IMG/VR virus record: IMGVR_UViG_3300045988_071311
Coordinates: 1 to 29,313 of that record
Reading direction: 5' to 3' (one strand)
From: a virus
Lineage: Duplodnaviria > Heunggongvirae > Uroviricota > Caudoviricetes
Length of the DNA stretch: 29,313 bases
The translations under genes were made by a program, and so were the position numbers. Positions within the stretch are counted from its first letter, which is position 1; the number at the start of each line of letters is the position of its first letter. This document shows positions 1 through 9,566 of this stretch, piece by piece. A model generated the notes under the pieces. That model was not told where the DNA came from. It ran no database searches and saw only the letters and a list, made by a program, of their open reading frames with translations.

Positions 1-181
1 CACGTCGCTTATCTTTTTTTTCACCAAGCCACGGCTTTTCAATTGTTTGGTCTTTTATATATCGCTCAAATGCCAGTGCTTCCCCTTTAGTTGCAAACAG
101 GCGGCGCACACGCCGCCCATCCCTACCGTTGGGGAAGACCTGAGCCTGCCACTTACCATTAGCGAGTTTTGTTACAGCCAC
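1..181 (-). CDS. int: Tyrosine integrase, N-terminal about 60 aa only (continues beyond window start)
   Basis: Not in the ORF track. Reverse-strand translation from a GTG at 181 gives MAVTKLANGKWQAQVFPNGRDGRRVRRLFATKGEALAFERYIKDQTIEKPWLGEKKDKRR, which closely resembles my recollection of the P2 Int N-terminus (MAIKKLDDGRYEVDIRPTGRNGKRIRRKF...AVAFEKY). Putative SD aaagg sits 8 nt upstream. Confidence 0.65.
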   Translation of the reverse strand, partial: MAVTKLANGKWQAQVFPNGRDGRRVRRLFATKGEALAFERYIKDQTIEKPWLGEKKDKRR

Positions 182-186
182 GTTTT

Positions 187-735
187 TTACCTTTGCGTGA
201 TTAACTCTTTAGCAAATATTGATAAACCGGGCTTACCTTCTTCAAGGTAACAGCACTTTTCAAATGCTGTGCTCCATTCACCATTGGCGGACATTAACTG
301 GTCTTCATTCAATATATTGCTGTGTTTGCGGAGTAAATTCATTGCCTGCTTTTTTGTAATGCTAAAATCATATTTATCTTGCGTCATATACTCCACCTTT
401 CGAGGTTGGGGAGTAATTGAAATTGGTAATACTGTGACTTTAACCCTGTCTGAAGGTGTTTGGTACAAAGTACGATATGCGGCGTAAATGGCTGCCTTGT
501 CTGATTCGTACTTAATATCTTTCGTTGAACTCCCTGATAAAGTGCGCGGTGAGATTTGGATGTGTAAAGGCTTTTCAGACAAAATTTTGAAAGATGGAAA
601 ATCCTTACCGTCTACGGTATAAGTTGGATAATCATTATAGTTTTCCATCAAGTCATTAATGTTTTTGAATTGTTCAGGTGCTGCAATTGCAGCAAATGAT
701 GACAAAATTAAAGCGCCTGTGACTAAAACTCTCAT
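187..735 (-). CDS. Secreted/periplasmic protein of unknown function (moron between cI and int)
   Basis: 182-aa ORF with ATG start and SD AGGAG 5 nt upstream. N-terminal signal peptide MRVLVTGALILSSFAAIAAP with no lipobox cysteine. Visibly AT-rich compared with flanking phage genes. Its TAA stop is 5 nt from the int GTG start. Confidence 0.7.
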   Translation of the reverse strand: MRVLVTGALILSSFAAIAAPEQFKNINDLMENYNDYPTYTVDGKDFPSFKILSEKPLHIQISPRTLSGSSTKDIKYESDKAAIYAAYRTLYQTPSDRVKVTVLPISITPQPRKVEYMTQDKYDFSITKKQAMNLLRKHSNILNEDQLMSANGEWSTAFEKCCYLEEGKPGLSIFAKELITQR

Positions 736-759
736 TTATTCTCCTTACGATATTTAATA

Positions 760-1374
760 TCAGTCCACGTTATCTATTTTGCTTGCCACTTTCCCTAAAA
801 CTTTTACATCAGAGGCCGCACATTCAAATGATGCTGGTCCGTTTTCGACACGAACTCGCCCGCCAGGCAGACGGTAAACCTGTCTGATGCTCGCAAAACC
901 ATCTATCTCAATCAGCCAGGTGCCGTCGTTGATCTCGCCTTTATATTCACTGACGAGATACGTCGTCGATTCAAATTTGACGAGAAACGGATCTGTGGTG
1001 TTTTGAGGTATTAGGCGTAGGTCATAACGAATCAAGGTTACGTTGTTTAAAATCCCATTTGTGATTTCATTTAATTGCAAAGTCAATCCGTGATCTTCAT
1101 TTGGCATGGCTTCTGGGGTGCCCTTACCAGTAGTTAGCCAAATCAAGGGTATACCTGTGTCCAGATGGCAGGCTATAAGCCAGTCATATGGAAAAGTGTC
1201 ACGCATCCAGCGGTTAGCCATTGTGCTTTGAGATACGCCGAGATGATCACATAGAGCTTGCCTTGTGCTAAATCCATAAGCCTGCAGAATGCGTGTTATG
1301 GCCTCTCTCCCCCCACTTTGAGATGGAAAATTGAATTTTGAAATTTCATTGAGGGTTTTTTTTGTGTTTGACAT
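760..1374 (-). CDS. cI: 186-type CI-like immunity repressor
   Basis: 204 aa, divergent from the early operon. N-terminal HTH-like segment (AYGFSTRQALCDHLGVSQSTMANRW) resembles my recollection of the phage 186 CI N-terminal domain. Length fits 186 CI (about 190 aa), not P2 C (99 aa). Confidence 0.7.
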   Translation of the reverse strand: MSNTKKTLNEISKFNFPSQSGGREAITRILQAYGFSTRQALCDHLGVSQSTMANRWMRDTFPYDWLIACHLDTGIPLIWLTTGKGTPEAMPNEDHGLTLQLNEITNGILNNVTLIRYDLRLIPQNTTDPFLVKFESTTYLVSEYKGEINDGTWLIEIDGFASIRQVYRLPGGRVRVENGPASFECAASDVKVLGKVASKIDNVD

Positions 1375-1474
1375 ATCTCAATTGTGATCCTATTATCGAT
1401 TTTGTGGTGTTCGGTATATGTGCGAATACATCCGAATAGTGAATTTTTAAACACAAACTGAGGAATAGTGCATC
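1375..1474. promoter_or_regulatory. Immunity switch region (expected lytic and lysogenic promoters and operators)
   Basis: 100-bp AT-rich intergenic region between divergent cI and apl/cox-like genes. Contains a CGAATA direct repeat spaced 10 bp apart (cgaatacatccgaatagtg). Individual promoter elements not confidently assigned. Confidence 0.4.
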
Positions 1475-1711
1475 ATGAAAAGTAATTTTTCAATGCGCCC
1501 CAGCATCAATCTTGTGATATCTGAGCCATTCATCACACTGGATGAGTTCTGTCGCCGTACTGGTTACAAGCCTAGCTATGCCCGTCAAATGATCCGGGAA
1601 AACCGTCTGCCCATCAGGAAAAAAGCCGGAGTTAACAGCCTTATCGAAATCAACATGTTCGCGTTGACGATGGAAGCGGCCCAAGGCTGCGAAGTCGCAA
1701 TGCAAGCCTGA
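1475..1711 (+). CDS. Apl/Cox-like excisionase and transcriptional regulator
   Basis: 78-aa first gene of the rightward early operon, directly opposite cI; SD gagga upstream of the ATG. Size and position match Apl (186) or Cox (P2). Confidence 0.6.
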   Translation: MKSNFSMRPSINLVISEPFITLDEFCRRTGYKPSYARQMIRENRLPIRKKAGVNSLIEINMFALTMEAAQGCEVAMQA

Positions 1712-1745
1712 TAGTTCCATTTTGGGATAGAAAAGGGTTTACATC

Positions 1746-2255
1746 ATGTTTGATTATCGTGTTTCCAAACATCCGCATTTTGATGAAGCCTGCCGGGCTT
1801 TCGCACTGCGTCACAACATGGCGAAGCTGGCAGCACGCGCGGGAATGAACGTCCAGACGCTGCGTAACAAGTTGAACCCGGAACAATCGCATCAGCTCAC
1901 GCCGTCAGAAATCTGGCTGCTTACCGATCTGACTGAAGATTCAACGCTGGTAGATGGTTTTCTGGCGCAGATTCACTGCCTGCCATGTGTACCGATTAAT
2001 GAGGTAGCAAAAGAGAAACTGCCGCATTACGTCATGAGTGCAACCGCAGAGATCGGGCGTGTTGCTGCAGGTGCGGTATCTGGCGATGTAAAAACCAGTG
2101 CAGGCCGTCGTGATGCGATCAGCAGCATTAACTCTGTTACACGACTGATGGCACTGGCTGCTGTTTCATTGCAGGCCCGTTTACAGGCTAATCCTGCGAT
2201 GGCGAGTGCAGTTGATACCGTGACTGGCCTCGGTGCTTCATTTGGTTTGCTGTGA
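1746..2255 (+). CDS. cII: CII-like lysogeny establishment activator (186 type)
   Basis: 169 aa, the same length as 186 CII. N-terminus MFDYRVSKHPHFDEACRAFALRHNMAKLAARAGMNVQTLRNKLNPEQ resembles my recollection of 186 CII. Confidence 0.7.
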   Translation: MFDYRVSKHPHFDEACRAFALRHNMAKLAARAGMNVQTLRNKLNPEQSHQLTPSEIWLLTDLTEDSTLVDGFLAQIHCLPCVPINEVAKEKLPHYVMSATAEIGRVAAGAVSGDVKTSAGRRDAISSINSVTRLMALAAVSLQARLQANPAMASAVDTVTGLGASFGLL

Positions 2256-2262
2256 GGTGCTT

Positions 2263-2463
2263 ATGCTAACGAAAGAACCATCATTTGCATCGCTGCTGGT
2301 AAAACAAAGCCCGGCAATGCATTACGGTCACGGCTGGATCATGGGGGAGGATGGTAAACGCTGGCATCCATGTCATTCACAAGATGAATTGCTGGCAGAA
2401 ATATCAACGAAAAAACGGGGGAACAAATGGCTATTGAAGGCGCTGCGGCGACTGTTCCATTAA
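2263..2463 (+). CDS. Hypothetical early protein (position of fil in 186)
   Basis: ORF-track ORF 2233..2463; internal ATG at 2263 is preferred because of SD gaggtg just upstream. Basic C-terminus. Function not recognised. Confidence 0.45.
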   Translation: MLTKEPSFASLLVKQSPAMHYGHGWIMGEDGKRWHPCHSQDELLAEISTKKRGNKWLLKALRRLFH

Positions 2464-2768
2464 GCCCCGGTGAACGCCTGAATGGACTTAATCATATCGC
2501 GGAGTTAAGGGCGAAAGTTTTTGGCCTTAATATTGAGTCAGAGCTTGAGCGGTTTATTAAAGATATGCGTGATCCACGGGATATTAATAATGAACAAAAT
2601 AAACGGGCACTGGCTGCCATATTCTTTATGGCAAAAATTCCAGCTGAACGTCATAGCATCAGCATTAATGAGCTGACCACTGACGAAAAGCGGGAGCTGA
2701 TTAAAGCAATGAATCATTTTCGTGCAGTGGTGAGCTTATTTCCCAGACGGCTAACCATGCCGAATTAA
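2427..2768 (+). CDS. Hypothetical early protein
   Basis: 113-aa ORF in the early operon with SD ggggga upstream. No recognisable motif. Confidence 0.5.
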   Translation: MAIEGAAATVPLSPGERLNGLNHIAELRAKVFGLNIESELERFIKDMRDPRDINNEQNKRALAAIFFMAKIPAERHSISINELTTDEKRELIKAMNHFRAVVSLFPRRLTMPN

Positions 2769-2835
2769 CCAATTAATGAAATTCATGGCGTAAACCCGCC
2801 GGGCATCCCTTTATCTAAATTCAGGAGAATTGATT

Positions 2836-3069
2836 ATGCGTAATATTGAAACCCACACCACTAAAACCGGACCGGATGACGCAGGGCTTAATATTTTACT
2901 GACAGAGGTTCGTCTGGAAGAACGCCGGGCAAGGGCTGAGGCAATGGCTGCCCGCCTTGATAGTCTGGCGTGTCATATCACATCCCGCCAGCTAAACCAC
3001 GTCGAAGCAGCAGAACTGCTGCGTGTGACCGCTGAAGCAATCCAGAACGAAGCGCAGGAGATCCACTAA
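2836..3069 (+). CDS. Hypothetical early protein
   Basis: ORF-track start at 2830 is a TTG; ATG at 2836 has SD aggag 7 nt upstream. Stop overlaps the start of the next gene. Confidence 0.5.
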   Translation: MRNIETHTTKTGPDDAGLNILLTEVRLEERRARAEAMAARLDSLACHITSRQLNHVEAAELLRVTAEAIQNEAQEIH

Positions 3070-3296: not shown

Positions 3297-4150
3297 GCAC
3301 CATCCTGAAATGGGCGGGTAATAAAACTGCCATTATGTCCGAACTGAAAAAATACCTTCCTGCTGGCCCGCGACTGGTTGAACCTTTCGCGGGTTCCTGT
3401 GCAGTGATGATGGAGACGGATTATCCCAGCTATCTGATTGCGGATATTAATCCTGATTTAATCAACCTCTATAAAAAGATTGCCGCTGATTGTGAATCGT
3501 TTATATCTCGCGCCAGAGTTTTATTTGAGAACGCAAACAGGGAGATGGATTATTACAACATAAGGCAGGAGTTTAATTACTCAACTGAAATTACTGATTT
3601 CATGAAAGCGGTATATTTCCTGTATCTCAATCGCCACGGTTACCGTGGGTTATGTCGCTATAACAAGAGCGGGCATTTCAACATTCCCTACGGTAATTAT
3701 AAAAATCCGTATTTTCCTGAAAAAGAAATGCGTGCATTTGCAGTAAAAGCCCAGCGGGCAACGTTTATCTGCGCCAGCTTCGATGAAACGCTGGCGATGT
3801 TGCACGCGGGGGATGTTGTGTATTGCGATCCGCCTTATGACGGTACGTTTTCCGGCTATCACACTGATGGCTTCACTGAAGATGATCAGTATCACCTGGC
3901 ATCCGTTCTTGAACATCGATCATCTGAAGGTCATCCGGTCATTGTTTCTAACAGTGACACATCCCTGATCCGTTCGCTGTATCGCAATTTCACTCACCAC
4001 TACATCAAGGCAAAACGCAGCATCGGCGTGTCGGCTGGCGAGAGTAAATCTGCAACAGAAATCATTGCTGTTTCTGGGGCGCGCTGCTGGGTGGGATTTG
4101 ATCCTTCGCGTGGCGTGGATAGTTCTGCTGTGTACGAGGTGCGTGTATGA
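3293..4150 (+). CDS. dam: DNA adenine methyltransferase (Dam family, probably GATC-specific)
   Basis: 285 aa. N-terminus LKWAGNK...[11 protein letters not shown] and catalytic motif VVYCDPPY are colinear with E. coli Dam as I recall it (FLKWAGGK...LVEPFVGAGSV...VVYCDPPY). Confidence 0.9.
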
Positions 4151-6561
4151 GTCATGACGATATGAGCAACTCTAGCGGCTTTAACGAGGCCGCTGCATCA
4201 TTTTCATGGAACGGCCCGAAAAAGGCCATTAACCCTTATCTGGATCCGGCGGAAGTTGCGCCGGAGTCTGCACTTTCAAACCTGATCACTCTGTACGCTG
4301 CCGATAACGAACAGGAACAACTGCGCCGCGAGGCACTGAGTGAGCAGGTCTGGGAGCGTTATTTCTTTAATGAATCCCGTGATCCTGTCCAGCGCGAAAT
4401 GGAGCAGGATAAGCTCATTAGCCGGGCAAAGCTGGCGCATGAGCAGCAGCGTTTTAATCCAGACATGGTCATTCTGGCGGACGTAAACGCCCAGCCTTCC
4501 CATATCAGCAAGCCGCTGATGCAACGTATTGAATACTTCAGCAGCCTGGGCAGGCCAAAGGCTTATTCCCGCTATTTGCGTGAGACGATTAAGCCATGTC
4601 TGGAACGACTGGAGCATGTACGCGACAGTCAGCTATCCACTTCTTTTCGCTTTATGGCAAGCCATGAAGGGCTGGACGGCCTGCTGATCCTGCCTGAAAT
4701 GAGTCAGGATCAGGTGAAACGCCTGTCTACTCTTGTCGCTGCGCATATGAACATGTGTCTTGATGCCGCTTGTGGTGATTTGTACGCCACCGATGATGTT
4801 AAGCCAGAAGAAATCCGCAAGACATGGGAAAAGGTGGCAGCGGAAACCCTGCGTCTGGATGTCATCCCACCTGCGTTTGAGCAACTCCGCTGGAAAAGAA
4901 ACCGCCGTAAACCCGTGCCCTATGAACTCATTCCGGGTTCGCTGGCGCGTATGTTGTGCGCCGACTGGTGGTATCGGAAATTATGGAAGATGCGTTGCGA
5001 ATGGCGGGAAGAGCAGTTGCGCGCTGTCTGCCTGGTTAGCAAAAAAGCATCTCCTTATGTCAGCTATGAAGCCGTGATGCATAAACGTGAGCAGCGCCGT
5101 AAGTCGCTGGAGTTTTTCCGTTCTCATGAACTGGTGAACGAAGACGGCGACACGCTGGACATGGAGGATGTGGTAAACGCCAGCAGCAGCAACCCTGCGC
5201 ATCGCCGCAATGAGATGATGGCCTGTGTTAAAGGTCTGGAGCTTATCGCGGAAATGCGCGGTGACTGCGCCGTTTTCTACACCATCACCTGTCCGTCACG
5301 TTTCCATTCCACGCTAAATAACGGCAGGCCCAACCCAACCTGGACAAATGCGACGGTAAGACAAAGTAGTGATTATCTGGTCGGCATGTTTGCTGCATTT
5401 CGTAAGGCGATGCACAAAGCCGGATTGCGCTGGTATGGCGTGCGGGTGGCTGAGCCGCATCATGACGGTACAGTTCACTGGCACCTGTTGTGTTTTATGC
5501 GCAAAAAAGACCGCCGCGCCATCACTGCATTACTGCGTAAGTTTGCCATCCGTGAAGACCGCGAGGAGCTGGGCAATAACACTGGGCCGCGCTTTAAGTC
5601 TGAGTTGATTAACCCGCGCAAAGGTACGCCAACAAGCTACATCGCGAAATACATCAGTAAGAACATTGACGGGCGTGGTCTGGCTGGCGAGATCAGTAAG
5701 GAAACGGGTAAATCCTTGCGTGATAACGCTGAATACGTTAATGCCTGGGCGTCTCTGCATCGTGTACAGCAATTCCGCTTCTTTGGTATTCCGGGACGTC
5801 AGGCTTACCGTGAACTTCGCTTGCTGGCTGGTCAGGCGGCAAGGCAACAGGGTGACAAAAAAGCAGGTGCGCCGGTACTGGATAACCCGCGTCTTGATGC
5901 CATTCTGGCTGCTGCTGATGCTGGTTGTTTTGCCACCTACATCATGAAGCAGGGCGGCGTACTGGTTCCCCGTAAATATCACCTCATCAGAACCGCTTAT
6001 GAAATCAACGAAGAGCCGACCGCCTATGGCGATCACGGTATTCGTATTTATGGCATCTGGTCACCCATTGCAGAGGGCAAGATCTGCACTCATGCAGTGA
6101 AGTGGAAAATGGTTCGTAAAGCCGTTGACGTTCAGGAGGCGGCAGCCGACCAGGGCGCTTGCGCCCCTTGGACTCGTGGCAATAACTGTCCCCTTGCTGA
6201 AAATTTGAACCAACAGGAGAAAGATAAATCAGCAGATGGGGATACCAGAACTGATATTACCTGCATGGATGACAAGGAATTGCACGATTACCTGCATAGT
6301 ATGAGCAAAAAAGAGCGCCGGGAACTGGCAGCAAGGTTACGCCTGGTTAAACCGATACGGCGTAAAGACTACAAACAGCGAATTACAGACCATCAACGAC
6401 TGCAGCTCGTCTATGAGCTGAAGTCCAGAGGATTTGATGGCAGCGAGAAAGAGGTCGATTTACTGCTTCACGGCGGCAGTATTCCGTCAGGAGCAGGCCT
6501 GCGTATCTTCTATCGGAACCAGCGTTTGCAGGAAGATGATAAGTGGCGGGATCTGTATTAA
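4147..6561 (+). CDS. A: Replication initiation endonuclease A (rolling-circle, HUH superfamily)
   Basis: 804 aa. HUH motif GTVHWHLL and tyrosine motif YIAKYISKN present. Position after the early genes, as for P2 gpA. Start overlaps the dam stop (ATGA). Confidence 0.9.
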
Positions 6562-6629
6562 TTACGCGGGTTAACAATTCGTGCTCTTAATAATACCAGG
6601 TATATCAGGCTGATGATCGTAAAAAAACG

Positions 6630-6657
6630 TTTTACATCAGTAAGATTATTATATACT
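6630..6657 (+). promoter_or_regulatory. Candidate sigma70 promoter (TTTTAC-16 bp-TATACT) overlapping a LexA box
   Basis: -35-like ttttac at 6630..6635 and -10-like tatact at 6652..6657, directly upstream of the 6714 ORF. Confidence 0.45.
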
Positions 6658-6673
6658 GTAAATATAAACAGTG
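6654..6673. promoter_or_regulatory. LexA box (SOS operator)
   Basis: tactgtaaatataaacagtg fits the CTGT-N8-ACAG core and matches the consensus TACTGTATATATATACAGTA at about 17 of 20 positions; it overlaps the -10 element. Confidence 0.75.
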
Positions 6674-6713
6674 GTTATGTATACAGTATTGCTTTGGTGT
6701 CATAGGAGGAAAG

Positions 6714-6902
6714 ATGCAGGACTATTTTTTGGAGTCTTTGAAGCTCCAGCGCATTGATTTTTTTCTTAAGCTTGTAGCGGCTAGTGAGTGTAGTGATGAA
6801 GAGAAGGGGCTGGCTTTGCAGTGGGTTTCTGAATTGACTGATGAACTCATGGCAAAAATCAGAAGCCACGAATACAACCGCTCAATGGATGTCATCAGCT
6901 GA
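6714..6902 (+). CDS. Small SOS-regulated protein, candidate Tum-like antirepressor (by position only)
   Basis: 62-aa ORF with SD aggagg 4 nt upstream of the ATG, immediately downstream of the LexA box and promoter. Confidence 0.5.
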   Translation: MQDYFLESLKLQRIDFFLKLVAASECSDEEKGLALQWVSELTDELMAKIRSHEYNRSMDVIS

Positions 6903-6912
6903 GGTGACTTTT

Positions 6913-7146
6913 ATGCGCATTGAAATAATGATCGATAAAGAGCAGAAGATTAGCCAGTCTACCCTGGACACCCTTGAATCCGAGCTTTACCGCAATCTGC
7001 GCCCCCTGTATCCCAAAACGGTAATTCGCATTCGCAAAGGTAGCTCTAACGGTGTGGAACTAACCGGACTGCAACTGGATGAAGAAAGAAAACAAGTGAT
7101 GAAAATTATGCAGAAGGTGTGGGAGGACGACAGCTGGCTGCATTAA
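6913..7146 (+). CDS. DinI-like protein
   Basis: 77 aa from ATG 6913, with SD gaggtg upstream. MRIEIMIDK...LESELYRNLRPLYP...WEDDSWL aligns with E. coli DinI (MRIEVTIAK...LAGELSRRIQYAFPD...WESADDW). The ORF-track version starting at 6841 is probably an over-extension. Confidence 0.8.
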   Translation: MRIEIMIDKEQKISQSTLDTLESELYRNLRPLYPKTVIRIRKGSSNGVELTGLQLDEERKQVMKIMQKVWEDDSWLH

Positions 7147-7276
7147 TGAACGTTGCTGGCGCCAGGACTTGATTCTGACGCCAGCGAGGTTGAACTACGA
7201 GCAGGGCGAGGCGCTAGCCAATGGTTGGTGAGGCATTAATTAATCATAGATTGAGAATGGTTTCTAATTTTAGATA

Positions 7277-8008
7277 TTAACTCATGAGAGAGAAATCTAA
7301 AGAATATTTAACAATGGACTTTTCTGCTTTATACCATTTAACATGTGACCATTCTTTTCCTGAAAGTAAAGAACGTATCTCTTCTTTACTTTCTTCACTG
7401 GTTCTCAAACCAAAAGCTATAGAGTTTATTGCTTTGGGCTCAAACTTTAATGCACCAGAATCTAACTTTATAAGTCTCCGCTCACGTTCATATCTCCAAC
7501 CGGAATATTTAGTTCCCAAGATTGAGTGAATTATATCACCAGCAATATTATGTAAGTTATTTTCGTTAGGGTGGTTCTCAAAAAAGTTGAGTCTGTCAAT
7601 GATGCCTTGATAAGGGTAGTTGCTTTGATACGTAATGTCTATGGCATGTATTTTTGAGCCTTCATATCTTAATTCCTTCTCTTTAAACCCAATGCAGAAC
7701 CCTCTATGTTCATCAGCGTAGTGGGACCACATTAATTGGTTCTTACGTGCCCGGCTTAAAGCGCAAACACCATATGTGCTTATTGACTCTTTTAGAGCTT
7801 CCTCAAATTTCAATTTCAAATCCAACGGTAGTTCTTTACGGGCCCATACTGCGGCTAAAACATCAGGAAAGGAAGTTTCAGCTTCGAAGGGGTCATTAAA
7901 GTTATCTGCAGTAGCGAACCATAATTCACGATTGCGAAGAACACGCAGTCCATCGTCTTTGCAGTTTCGATATTTAAATAAAATTCCATTTTTTACCGTG
8001 GTGTTCAT
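7277..8008 (-). CDS. Uncharacterised 243-aa cytoplasmic protein in the A-to-Q accessory hotspot; candidate anti-phage defence protein (possibly DUF2971-like)
   Basis: Long ORF on the strand opposite to all neighbours, strongly AT-rich by eye. No signal peptide or TM segment. Motifs LWFATADNFNDPFE and MWSHYADEHRGFCIGF resemble what I recall of the DUF2971 family; family call is tentative. Possible extended -10 (TGnTATAAA) around 8075..8080 on the minus strand. Confidence 0.75.
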   Translation of the reverse strand: MNTTVKNGILFKYRNCKDDGLRVLRNRELWFATADNFNDPFEAETSFPDVLAAVWARKELPLDLKLKFEEALKESISTYGVCALSRARKNQLMWSHYADEHRGFCIGFKEKELRYEGSKIHAIDITYQSNYPYQGIIDRLNFFENHPNENNLHNIAGDIIHSILGTKYSGWRYERERRLIKLDSGALKFEPKAINSIAFGLRTSEESKEEIRSLLSGKEWSHVKWYKAEKSIVKYSLDFSLMS

Positions 8009-8341
8009 TTTTGATTTATCCCCTTTTCAAACTGAATGAACATATTTTCTCATGCATCGAGAACTGGCACGGCATTTATACACCAAATGTGCAGCAGTCG
8101 CATTATGCCCGCAACAACAATTCTGTTATAGCCAATTTAGCTACAGTCTATAAAGTACACACTACATTAGTAAACTAAAAAGCTAGGACGTTAGACGGTT
8201 TTTGTTTTGGGGAGCACTGCATGTCTATGCCGCATGAATCCGCATGATCGTTTGAGGATCGTTTTTGCTGAGGCCCGCCAGAACTGGCGGGCTTTTGCTT
8301 ATGTCATGCAGGTGCATGAAAATCACTGCATAAAGCGGGCA

Positions 8342-8360
8342 GGCGTGGCGGGGATACGAG
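8342..8360. other. cos: Candidate cos site (cohesive-end sequence)
   Basis: ggcgtggcggggatacgag matches the first 13 nt of the 19-nt cohesive end I recall for 186 (GGCGTGGCGGGGAAAGCAT) and P2 (GGCGAGGCGGGGAAAGCAC). Located between the accessory island and portal gene Q, as in P2. Confidence 0.55.
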
Positions 8361-8522
8361 CGCGCGCAACGGGGTAAAATGGCCAAAATCCGGCACAGCC
8401 TCTGGCCCGCTGGCGGCCTCATTTAGTGGAGAGGGGGGAAGATGTCAGGGCAAAAAGAAACGCCCCGCAGAATGCTGCTGAGGCGTTGTGAGAGTTGGTC
8501 GGTTATTGATGTTATGAGTATG

Positions 8523-9566
8523 TCAGCCTCGTTTGCCCTTAAGTCCTAAGTCATAAGCTTCAAAACGGATCACCTCTTCATCCAGCCAGTCATTCAGCTC
8601 CTGCAGTCGCTTTTGCAATGGCATCAGTTCATTGCGGACGAAGACACGGCTCGCTTTTTCCACATCACCAAAGCCGCCAGTATTGTTGGGAATGATGCCC
8701 ATCATTTGCGGCGGTACGCGGTGAGCCGCCATCATGTCATCGCGGCTGACGTTCTTGATGTTCAGAAATTCATCCTTCGCCGCGACTTCCGACAACGGGA
8801 TAATCTGAATGCCATCTTTTTTGCCGTTAGGCGAGTACATAAACAGGTTGCGAAAGTTGCCGGGTCCTTTAGCACTTTTCATTGCCTTGCGGATGTTGTT
8901 CACATCCTCCTGGTTCTGCGCGGCATCGGTCATATACATGATGAAGCCAGCATGGCTGCCGTTAATGTAATACTTACGACGGAACAACGTGGCGGACTCG
9001 TTGAGCAGAGCTGACGGAATGGCAGAAAGGTAACCCGGCAGACCATAAATCTCCTGGTTGATATCCGGCTCCATCAGGTGGAAGACGTTACCTTTTGTGA
9101 ACTGATACGGCTGTGTAGTCAGGCTGTATTGCACAAACCAGTATGTTTCAAGGTCAAGCCCGCGTCGGGTGTATTTTGCCAGTGCAGGCTCCAGCGAAAT
9201 AACTTCACCAAAGCGGTTCGTGCGTTTCTCCAGGTAGGCGTTACCAAAAACCAGATAGTCCTGCACAAAACGGGTAAATGCCTGCTGGCTGAGAAGGCGA
9301 TGTGGAATATAGGTACTGCTGATAATGTCACGCTTAACACTGATCGGGGAGCTGTGGTGCACGGCGGCGCGGAAGGTGCGCGCCAGTCCGTCAAAGCTGA
9401 CGGGCGGCTCATACCAGCGATCCATCTGTACGCATTCCACATAGTCCAGCAGTTCGCGGCGGTCCAGTACGGGGATGGGATCACCAAAGCTGAAAGCCTC
9501 CGCAACGGTTTTTTTAGTTTCTTCTGCAGTTACGGTTTCGCCTGGCGCGATATGTTCTTTCATCAA
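8523..9566 (-). CDS. Q: Portal protein
   Basis: 347 aa (P2 gpQ about 344 aa), first gene inward from cos, followed by and co-oriented with the large terminase. Confidence 0.85.
   Translation of the reverse strand: MMKEHIAPGETVTAEETKKTVAEAFSFGDPIPVLDRRELLDYVECVQMDRWYEPPVSFDGLARTFRAAVHHSSPISVKRDIISSTYIPHRLLSQQAFTRFVQDYLVFGNAYLEKRTNRFGEVISLEPALAKYTRRGLDLETYWFVQYSLTTQPYQFTKGNVFHLMEPDINQEIYGLPGYLSAIPSALLNESATLFRRKYYINGSHAGFIMYMTDAAQNQEDVNNIRKAMKSAKGPGNFRNLFMYSPNGKKDGIQIIPLSEVAAKDEFLNIKNVSRDDMMAAHRVPPQMMGIIPNNTGGFGDVEKASRVFVRNELMPLQKRLQELNDWLDEEVIRFEAYDLGLKGKRG

Follow-up and report, generated by a model that had tools for sequence, protein, structure and literature searches.

A predicted exported protein encoded between the repressor and integrase genes of a 186/P2-family prophage, with a possible role in superinfection exclusion

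INTRODUCTION

Prophage genes that are expressed together with the repressor are the main route by which temperate phages alter their hosts. Here we analyze such a gene, called X, which encodes a protein of 182 amino acids and lies between the repressor gene cI and the integrase gene int in a 29,313-nucleotide (nt) viral sequence (IMG/VR record IMGVR_UViG_3300045988_071311, Caudoviricetes; "the window" is this whole stretch). In phage lambda, the accessory rexAB genes are co-transcribed with the repressor in lysogens and exclude other phages, and a first-pass annotation of the window had named rexAB as an example of genes in such a position. The glo and orf2 genes of the Vibrio cholerae phage K139 provide a better precedent: that phage is of the P2 family, both genes lie in exactly this slot between its cI and int, and Glo is a soluble exclusion protein of the periplasm.

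The annotation of K139 places cI, orf2, glo, and int on a mapped PL operon and describes Glo as a "periplasmic protein; involved in phage exclusion." Orf2 is said, in work of Nesper et al. from 1999, to help prevent superinfection, and glo mutants were reportedly also attenuated in mice, according to Reidl and Mekalanos in 1995. Among superinfection-exclusion (Sie) proteins, Glo is an unusual soluble periplasmic member (PMC3952083); the envelope proteins Imm and Sp of T4, SieA of P22, gp15 of HK97, Llp of T5, Cor of phi80, and Ltp of TP-J34 block receptor use or DNA entry (PMC3952083). In K139-like Vibrio prophages, the interval between cI and int has been called a defense hotspot (Rousset et al., PMC9122126), and in a 2026 survey the integrase-primase interval accounted for 8% of the defense systems of P2-like prophages (PMC13586616). 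Envelope exclusion proteins are far less well catalogued than cytoplasmic defense because they are small, encoded by single genes, and devoid of recognizable domains. In phage 186, pL and the CII-activated pE are annotated as driving "the lysogenic operon," with a terminator beyond attP. Morons that encode exported proteins within the lysogeny operon, in the slot between cI and int, are known already from the P2 family; new here is an unannotated family, without a fold relative in PDB or BFVD, that is shared with integron cassettes.

RESULTS

X lies between cI and int in a 186-type immunity module

The window begins within the left arm of a 186/P2-family prophage. Its left end carries, on the minus strand, cI, then X, and then the first 60 codons of int (Table 1). 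The 186-type order of a CI repressor followed by a same-strand tyrosine integrase is present: the cI product has the Pfam domains Phage_CI_repr (E value of 1.9e-27) and Phage_CI_C (4.3e-21), and it is ~31% identical to 186 CI, as measured on the 93%-identical copy in E. coli PSS-07. The int fragment matches PHROG integrase 11531 starting at profile position 1 (E value of 5.7e-21), its product is 98% identical to the N terminus of the annotated E. coli PSS-07 integrase, and its GTG start codon is the one annotated there.

In the list of open reading frames (ORFs), X begins with an ATG at 735-733 and ends with a TAA at 189-187, while cI ends with a TGA at 762-760. The spacers are 24 nt from the cI stop to the X start and 5 nt from the X stop to the int start, and the Shine-Dalgarno motif read from the sequence (746-741) lies 5 nt ahead of the X ATG. 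The first-pass annotation had described a 182-amino-acid gene between cI and int on the same strand with these two spacers, and every coordinate was exact. It had also called the gene AT-rich, in agreement with GC contents of 37.7% for X, 44.4% for cI, and 52.7% for the whole window.

X is maintained by purifying selection

A word-indexed protein search returned 17 clusters of X homologues (47 to 96% identity; 175 to 186 amino acids), all named "hypothetical protein," from Serratia, Cronobacter, Citrobacter, Pseudescherichia, Salmonella, and Plesiomonas. For the exact X protein, 46 contigs of E. coli are on record. The 90% cluster to which it belongs further spans Salmonella (one variant in 910 contigs), Enterobacter, Citrobacter, Cronobacter, and Serratia, and a Klebsiella copy is recorded in another cluster, that of protein P0008 (62% identical to X).

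Comparison of window X with the E. coli PSS-07 copy gave a dN/dS ratio of 0.17, and a pair of Yersinia-type copies gave 0.15. In more distant pairs, synonymous sites were saturated and pN was only 0.25 to 0.46. X is thus under purifying selection, at a dN/dS of about 0.16. Because its length is kept over 47 to 96% identity, dN/dS is low, and pN stays low despite synonymous saturation, X is not a chance ORF.

X is predicted to be exported and has a confident model with no known structural relative

The X protein begins with a short charged segment (MR) and a 16-residue hydrophobic run, followed by A-I-A|A-P. Ala18 is invariant in 18 relatives, and close relatives almost always keep Pro20. No lipobox occurs in the signal region of X or its 17 close relatives, one of which (P0015) has a cysteine inside the hydrophobic core, outside a lipobox context; X has no second hydrophobic segment. 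This N terminus fits a Sec signal peptide of the kind that signal peptidase I removes; cleavage would leave a mature protein of ~164 amino acids, and X is accordingly predicted to be exported. The signal peptide proposed in the first-pass annotation is supported by these features, read from the sequence: a Sec-like N terminus, an AxA site, and the invariant Ala18.

That annotation had also reported that the sequence was not recognized and had suggested structure prediction as a check. X alone had no match in Pfam, PHROGs v4, NCBIfam, or PADLOC 2.0, and 59 diverse relatives gave no consistent Pfam, PADLOC, or PHROG match, the isolated single-member ones having E values of ≥9.5e-4. AlphaFold2 (18-sequence alignment) produced a confident alpha/beta model (mean pLDDT of 88.6; pTM of 0.83), in which only residues 1 to 16 had a pLDDT of <50. 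A Foldseek search of this model against PDB and BFVD returned nothing at an E value of ≤1e-3, and a PDB sequence-profile search with X yielded only E values of ≥0.68. No sequence family among those databases and no significant structural relative in PDB or BFVD was thus found.

X keeps its slot in related prophages and has diverged together with cI

The first-pass annotation had proposed comparing the int-cI regions of related prophages for the presence of X. In all 33 prophage copies examined, X lies between the repressor gene and int. It sits directly between a same-strand repressor and int in E. coli PSS-07 (locus L001), Salmonella (L002/L003), Plesiomonas (L004), and two metagenomic contigs (L005 and L022). 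In 25 further loci, drawn from IMG/VR viral contigs and from GTDB genomes scanned with the alignment of close relatives, the X copies are 42 to 99% identical, and all 25 follow a CI-type repressor and precede int. The repressor lies 18 to 60 nt upstream of X, stop codons counted, and the X-int spacing is 4 to 7 nt (7 to 10 nt with the stop codon) in 24 of the 25, the exception being a Plesiomonas metagenome-assembled genome (L025). The cI-X spacer (27 nt with the stop codon) has the same length in close homologous loci. Yersinia P2-like prophages carry ~30%-identical X copies between int and a short, 122-amino-acid repressor of the HTH_31 type, and the slot is thus kept across two unrelated repressor types.

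Measured against E. coli PSS-07, whose X is 96% identical to that of the window, identities of X, cI, and int were 60%, 56%, and 84% in Salmonella L002; 55%, 53%, and 77% in Plesiomonas L004; 51%, 38%, and 51% in metagenomic L005; and 47%, 36%, and 54% in metagenomic L022. Divergence of X tracks that of cI, and in the closer loci int has changed less than either. Neither direct nor inverted repeats were detected on the flanks of window X. X is an old, co-diverging resident of the immunity module.

The prototype phages have nothing in this slot. In phages SopEPhi and RE-2010 and Klebsiella phage ST15-OXA48phi14.1, cI is joined to int with 1 to 2 nt between them, and in phage 186 cI is annotated as overlapping int by 1 nt; X is therefore accessory. 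The first-pass annotation had described X as an inserted moron, and the status of accessory gene stands. A recent insertion does not, because X identity tracks that of cI, flanking repeats are absent, and the 24-nt and 5-nt spacings are kept in close relatives.

X was not found in 50,697 phage records by tblastn, and the int-X-cI segment had no megablast match in them. The module from int to the pR/pL region (window 1-1500) likewise had no nucleotide match in the phage collection, while the replication, structural, and lysis regions (4200-29000) are 94 to 95% identical over >90% of their length to Escherichia phage 500465-1 and several Klebsiella phages. Because X is absent from phage records although the rest is 94 to 95% identical to known phages, we regard the immunity module as a mosaic replacement. 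The closest relatives by structural genes do lack X, and the first-pass annotation had held that absence from close relatives without any phenotype would speak against its reading; the comparison is uninformative, since their immunity modules differ.

X is rare in E. coli: only 2 of 5,426 complete genomes carry it, both in a prophage remnant that lacks structural genes and has int-X-cI intact. The PSS-07 locus (NZ_AP027673.1, 653018-666518) is a decayed prophage beside tRNA-Ile near mug and rpoD, in which dam is fused to a truncated tape-measure gene and most structural genes have been lost, with int, X, cI, and the early genes left intact. A hypothetical gene of 444 amino acids, oppositely oriented, separates nfeF from int.

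Other variations of the slot were seen. In the distant X prophages L005, L022, and L044 to L047, CI measures 282 to 294 amino acids versus 204 to 216, which implies an extra N-terminal segment. A 60-amino-acid gene lies between X and int in Plesiomonas L004 (5615-5797); its precomputed Pfam match to YdcA (PF27300) was not reproduced at an E value of ≤0.01. Klebsiella phage 4LV2017 (3552-5370 of its locus) carries in the cI-int slot an unrelated 349-amino-acid protein with no Pfam or PADLOC match, and ~770 bp of unannotated DNA separate that gene from int. SopEPhi (4630-5841 of its locus) and RE-2010 (4641-5846 of its locus), both without X, have a co-oriented gene of ~400 amino acids directly after int; the lysogenic operon can thus carry cargo downstream of int, too.

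X is probably transcribed with cI

No terminator-like site was found in window 1-1800, a promoter scan gave no minus-strand promoter better than 8/12 inside cI-X-int, and no Rfam family was detected in window 1-3000. Upstream of cI, candidates for pR (11/12) and pL (8/12) were recognized as consensus matches only. The pL candidate is placed as is the annotated pL of phage 186, and the convergent pR/pL arrangement is likewise that of 186. Because neither a terminator nor a good internal promoter was found, and given the 186 and K139 annotations, we infer as the default reading that X is co-transcribed with cI.

An imperfect inverted repeat of 28 nt (1361-1388 and 1430-1457; 71% complementary) lies on either side of the stretch that separates the starts of cI and the apl-like gene. 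Lying over the pR and pL candidates, it may represent an operator arrangement.

The X family extends to integron cassettes

An exhaustive profile search yielded 226 representative clusters, 136 of them at an E value of ≤1e-10. In nearly all of the 188 family members listed, the domain is preceded at the N terminus by a signal peptide, a lipobox, or a membrane anchor, the lipobox being present in some distant members, and X thus belongs to an uncharacterized domain family that, by these features, is extracytoplasmic. Ten longer members contained no informative Pfam partner domain, apart from a 2,706-amino-acid Ig-repeat protein whose matches span only profile positions 81 to 128 and were set aside as spurious.

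Relatives outside prophages lie in cassette or island arrays together with SIR2, ThsB-TIR, Mrr, RelA/SpoT, and toxin-antitoxin genes. One such array (L016/L017; metagenomic contig ERZ25039599 contig_3573) is integron-like, with attC-like GCCCAAC...GTTGGGC hairpin repeats after six successive genes (z scores to -7.6), and a second (L020) is probably so; a repeat search of L013, L014, L015, and L021 detected no cassette-type repeats. In L016/L017, whole cassettes are duplicated, with 300-nt repeats that are 100% identical, and each of two X-relative copies is followed by a gene with a RelA/SpoT domain. Window X itself was rejected as an integron cassette: it has no flanking repeats or hairpins, and the attC feature belongs to its distant relative in L016/L017.

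Other features of the window

According to the annotation of a 95.9%-identical E. coli locus, the plus-strand early genes are apl-like, cII, fil, DUF5347, DUF2732, a TraR/DksA zinc-finger gene, and dam. A second AT-rich island (window 6600-8400; GC content of 0.37 to 0.44) lies between the replication gene gpA (4147-6561) and the portal gene (8523-9566), the position of the classical P2 defense hotspot. Its ORFs at 7277-8008 (minus strand) and 6841-7146 (plus strand) encode a 243-amino-acid DUF2971 protein and a DinI-like protein, and the former matches the PADLOC candidate defense family PDC-S31 (E value of 1e-47).

Table 1. Coordinates and supporting evidence for features at the left end of the window
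Feature	Coordinates	Strand	Evidence or remarks
int, 5′ part	1..181	minus	60 codons; GTG at 181-179; continues past left window edge; PHROG 11531
X-int spacer (AAAAC)	182..186	minus	Fits translational coupling of int to X
Gene X (182-amino-acid precursor, uncharacterized family)	187..735	minus	ORF, homologues, dN/dS, AlphaFold2
Predicted Sec signal peptide, codons 1-18 (MRVLVTGALILSSFAAIA, then APEQ...)	682..735	minus	Hydrophobic core and AxA site; pLDDT of <50 confined to residues 1-16
cI-X intergenic spacer	736..759	minus	24 nt, without terminator-like hairpin
Shine-Dalgarno sequence (AAGGAG)	741..746	minus	Read from sequence
cI immunity repressor (204 amino acids), first gene of the lysogenic operon	760..1374	minus	Pfam; E. 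coli PSS-07 annotation ("phage repressor protein CI")
Candidate pR early lytic promoter (TTGACA, 17 nt, TATTAT)	1368..1396	plus	11/12; convergent with pL, as in phage 186
Candidate pL lysogenic promoter (TTGAAA, 17 nt, CACTAT)	1465..1493	minus	8/12, weak; overlaps apl-like start, as in 186
apl-like gene (1475-1711) and cII (1746-2255), early lytic operon	1475..2255	plus	ORFs and E. coli PSS-07 annotation; in phage 186, pE lies in this region

DISCUSSION

A possible superinfection-exclusion factor and its alternatives

X is very probably an accessory protein that is produced from the lysogenic transcript and exported, and from its place between the repressor and integrase genes, lysogens probably make it continuously. 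We picture it as a moron that may have turned into a stable part of the 186/P2-family lysogenic operon. In established lysogens, X would be transcribed with cI and int from pL and, by analogy with phage 186, also from the CII-activated pE during establishment. It would be translated from its own strong ribosome-binding site, with int translationally coupled to the X stop codon. The precursor would then be exported by Sec and cleaved after Ala18, giving a soluble alpha/beta protein of ~164 amino acids in the periplasm. There X might, by binding, block an early step that follows adsorption, in which the tail tip or DNA of another phage crosses the periplasm and inner membrane.

Position, compartment, precedent, and neighborhood together suggest such an anti-phage role. 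By analogy with Glo, our preferred explanation is that X is a periplasmic superinfection-exclusion factor acting after adsorption, and we give this overall statement a little less than an even chance. More doubtful, although conceivable, is a broader proposal: that the X family is a new one, with a fold that has no recognizable relative, of soluble periplasmic or envelope-anchored, single-gene blockers of phage entry that move between the prophage slot and integron cassettes and, in the prophages, co-diversify with the repressor as a second immunity layer at the envelope.

Several observations weigh against a Glo-like exclusion factor in a cI-X-int operon. The pL candidate is weak (8/12). X and Glo showed no homology, with an hhalign probability of 0.3% (59-sequence profile) and a BLASTP E value of 12. 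The defense-gene neighbors of X relatives in integron arrays are weak evidence, since such arrays carry many kinds of cargo. Finally, the family occurs in many non-phage contexts and phyla, which implies that its basic activity is not phage specific.

X may instead serve lysogenic conversion, shielding or altering the envelope in ways that have nothing to do with phage, an explanation that we consider possible but would not presume. Variants of it include an orphan periplasmic immunity protein or inhibitor directed against attack in the periplasm by effectors of type VI secretion or contact-dependent inhibition, bacteriocins, lysozymes, or proteases, and a host-interaction or virulence factor. 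The X family is broad, extracytoplasmic, and found mostly outside prophages, including as single-gene cassettes in arrays with Tox-MPTase3 (L014), CcdAB, and PIN/MazE genes. Retention of int-X-cI in the E. coli remnant from which structural genes are deleted would also suit this explanation, as would the mouse attenuation that is said to accompany loss of K139 glo. Secreted proteins with a role at the cell surface are a common prediction for the products of integron cassettes (PMC10963911). Against conversion, no cognate toxin gene consistently adjoins family members in the loci examined, and Pfam contains no known immunity or inhibitor family that matches X. X is strictly placed between repressor and int in prophages of the P2 family and in one case accompanies a homologue of K139 Orf2, both of which point instead to conflict between phages.

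A role in the life cycle of the phage itself, such as tuning of int translation through coupling or assistance with establishment or induction, is unlikely. The conserved 5-nt spacing between the X stop and the int start and the co-divergence of X with the immunity module would fit it, but integration and regulation take place in the cytoplasm, out of reach of an exported protein, prototype phages work with cI joined directly to int, and X homologues occur as stand-alone cassettes without any phage.

Less likely still is that X works as an enzyme in the periplasm, for instance by degrading incoming DNA as a PD-(D/E)XK-like nuclease. There is a precedent in the periplasmic endonuclease IdeA of a Vibrio integrative and conjugative element, which blocks DNA entry (PMC12378983), and PD-(D/E)XK proteins (Cas4, HincII, cap-snatching endonucleases, UL24, and Exo5) recur among the top sub-threshold structural matches of X. 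These fold matches are insignificant, and Asp35 is the sole family-conserved acidic residue that X retains; at the positions of the wider family's second acidic residue and His, X has Ser and Gln. Membership of X in the PD-(D/E)XK superfamily was therefore rejected, and judging from these residues X more likely acts by binding than by catalysis.

That the ORF is spurious or a decaying, functionless remnant, as might be supposed of an AT-rich gene without a known domain that is annotated merely as "hypothetical protein," is effectively refuted by its dN/dS of 0.15 to 0.17, its conserved length over 47 to 96% identity, the confident AlphaFold model, the 226 related clusters, and the strong ribosome-binding site.

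X offers a clean test case for envelope-level exclusion, with a fixed slot across two repressor types, a confident model without a known relative, and a family of ~226 clusters that has no entry in Pfam, PHROGs, or PADLOC and ties the lysogeny modules of P2-family phages to integron cassettes. Should X turn out to block phage entry, defense-annotation tools would gain a family, and the finding would bear on phage therapy directed at lysogens of Salmonella, Enterobacter, Citrobacter, Cronobacter, Serratia, and E. coli. Should it act otherwise at the envelope, it would still be a widespread lysogenic-conversion gene.

Comparison with known systems

X resembles K139 Glo in lying between cI and int on the same strand of a P2-family phage (K139 belongs to Longwoodvirus). 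Both proteins are small, with an N-terminal signal peptide (predicted for X) and without a lipobox. They differ in length (137 amino acids for Glo and 182 for X) and in order, Glo being encoded last before int, behind orf2, and X directly behind cI; K139 is among the phage records without a tblastn match to X. K139 Orf2 shares the cI-int slot with X but is a cytoplasmic BRCT protein unrelated to it, and no Orf2 homologue is present in the window. The two kinds of cargo do meet in the Plesiomonas genome L025 (3438-6065), where the order is cI-X-orf2-int and the 317-amino-acid, full-length K139 Orf2 homologue (33% identity; E value of 2e-53) is a BRCT protein with a weak match to the PADLOC candidate PDC-S48.

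RexA is cytoplasmic, RexB resides in the inner membrane, and the two form a two-component abortive infection system, whereas X is predicted to be a soluble exported protein; no sequence relationship between X and rexAB was seen, X having no Pfam, PHROG, or PADLOC match. The exclusion proteins Imm, Sp, SieA, gp15, Llp, Cor, and Ltp are encoded by phages or prophages and extracytoplasmic, as is predicted for X. They are membrane anchored or lipoproteins, however, while X has neither a lipobox nor a second hydrophobic segment, and family, PDB, and BFVD searches gave no sequence or fold match between X and envelope-located exclusion proteins.

The window resembles phage 186 (cI-int-orf69) in its CI family, its apl, cII, and fil early genes, the convergent layout of its candidate pR and pL promoters, and the location of int downstream of cI, and departs from it in having X between cI and int, where 186 has nothing. 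The X slot is also comparable to the hotspots of P2-like phages (old/tin between gpA and gpQ, Z/fun, and the cI-int interval of K139-like phages), which hold variable cargo at fixed positions. Unlike those hotspots, in the Enterobacterales 186-like prophages examined the slot usually holds one gene, which co-diverges with cI without rapid swapping of diverse systems.

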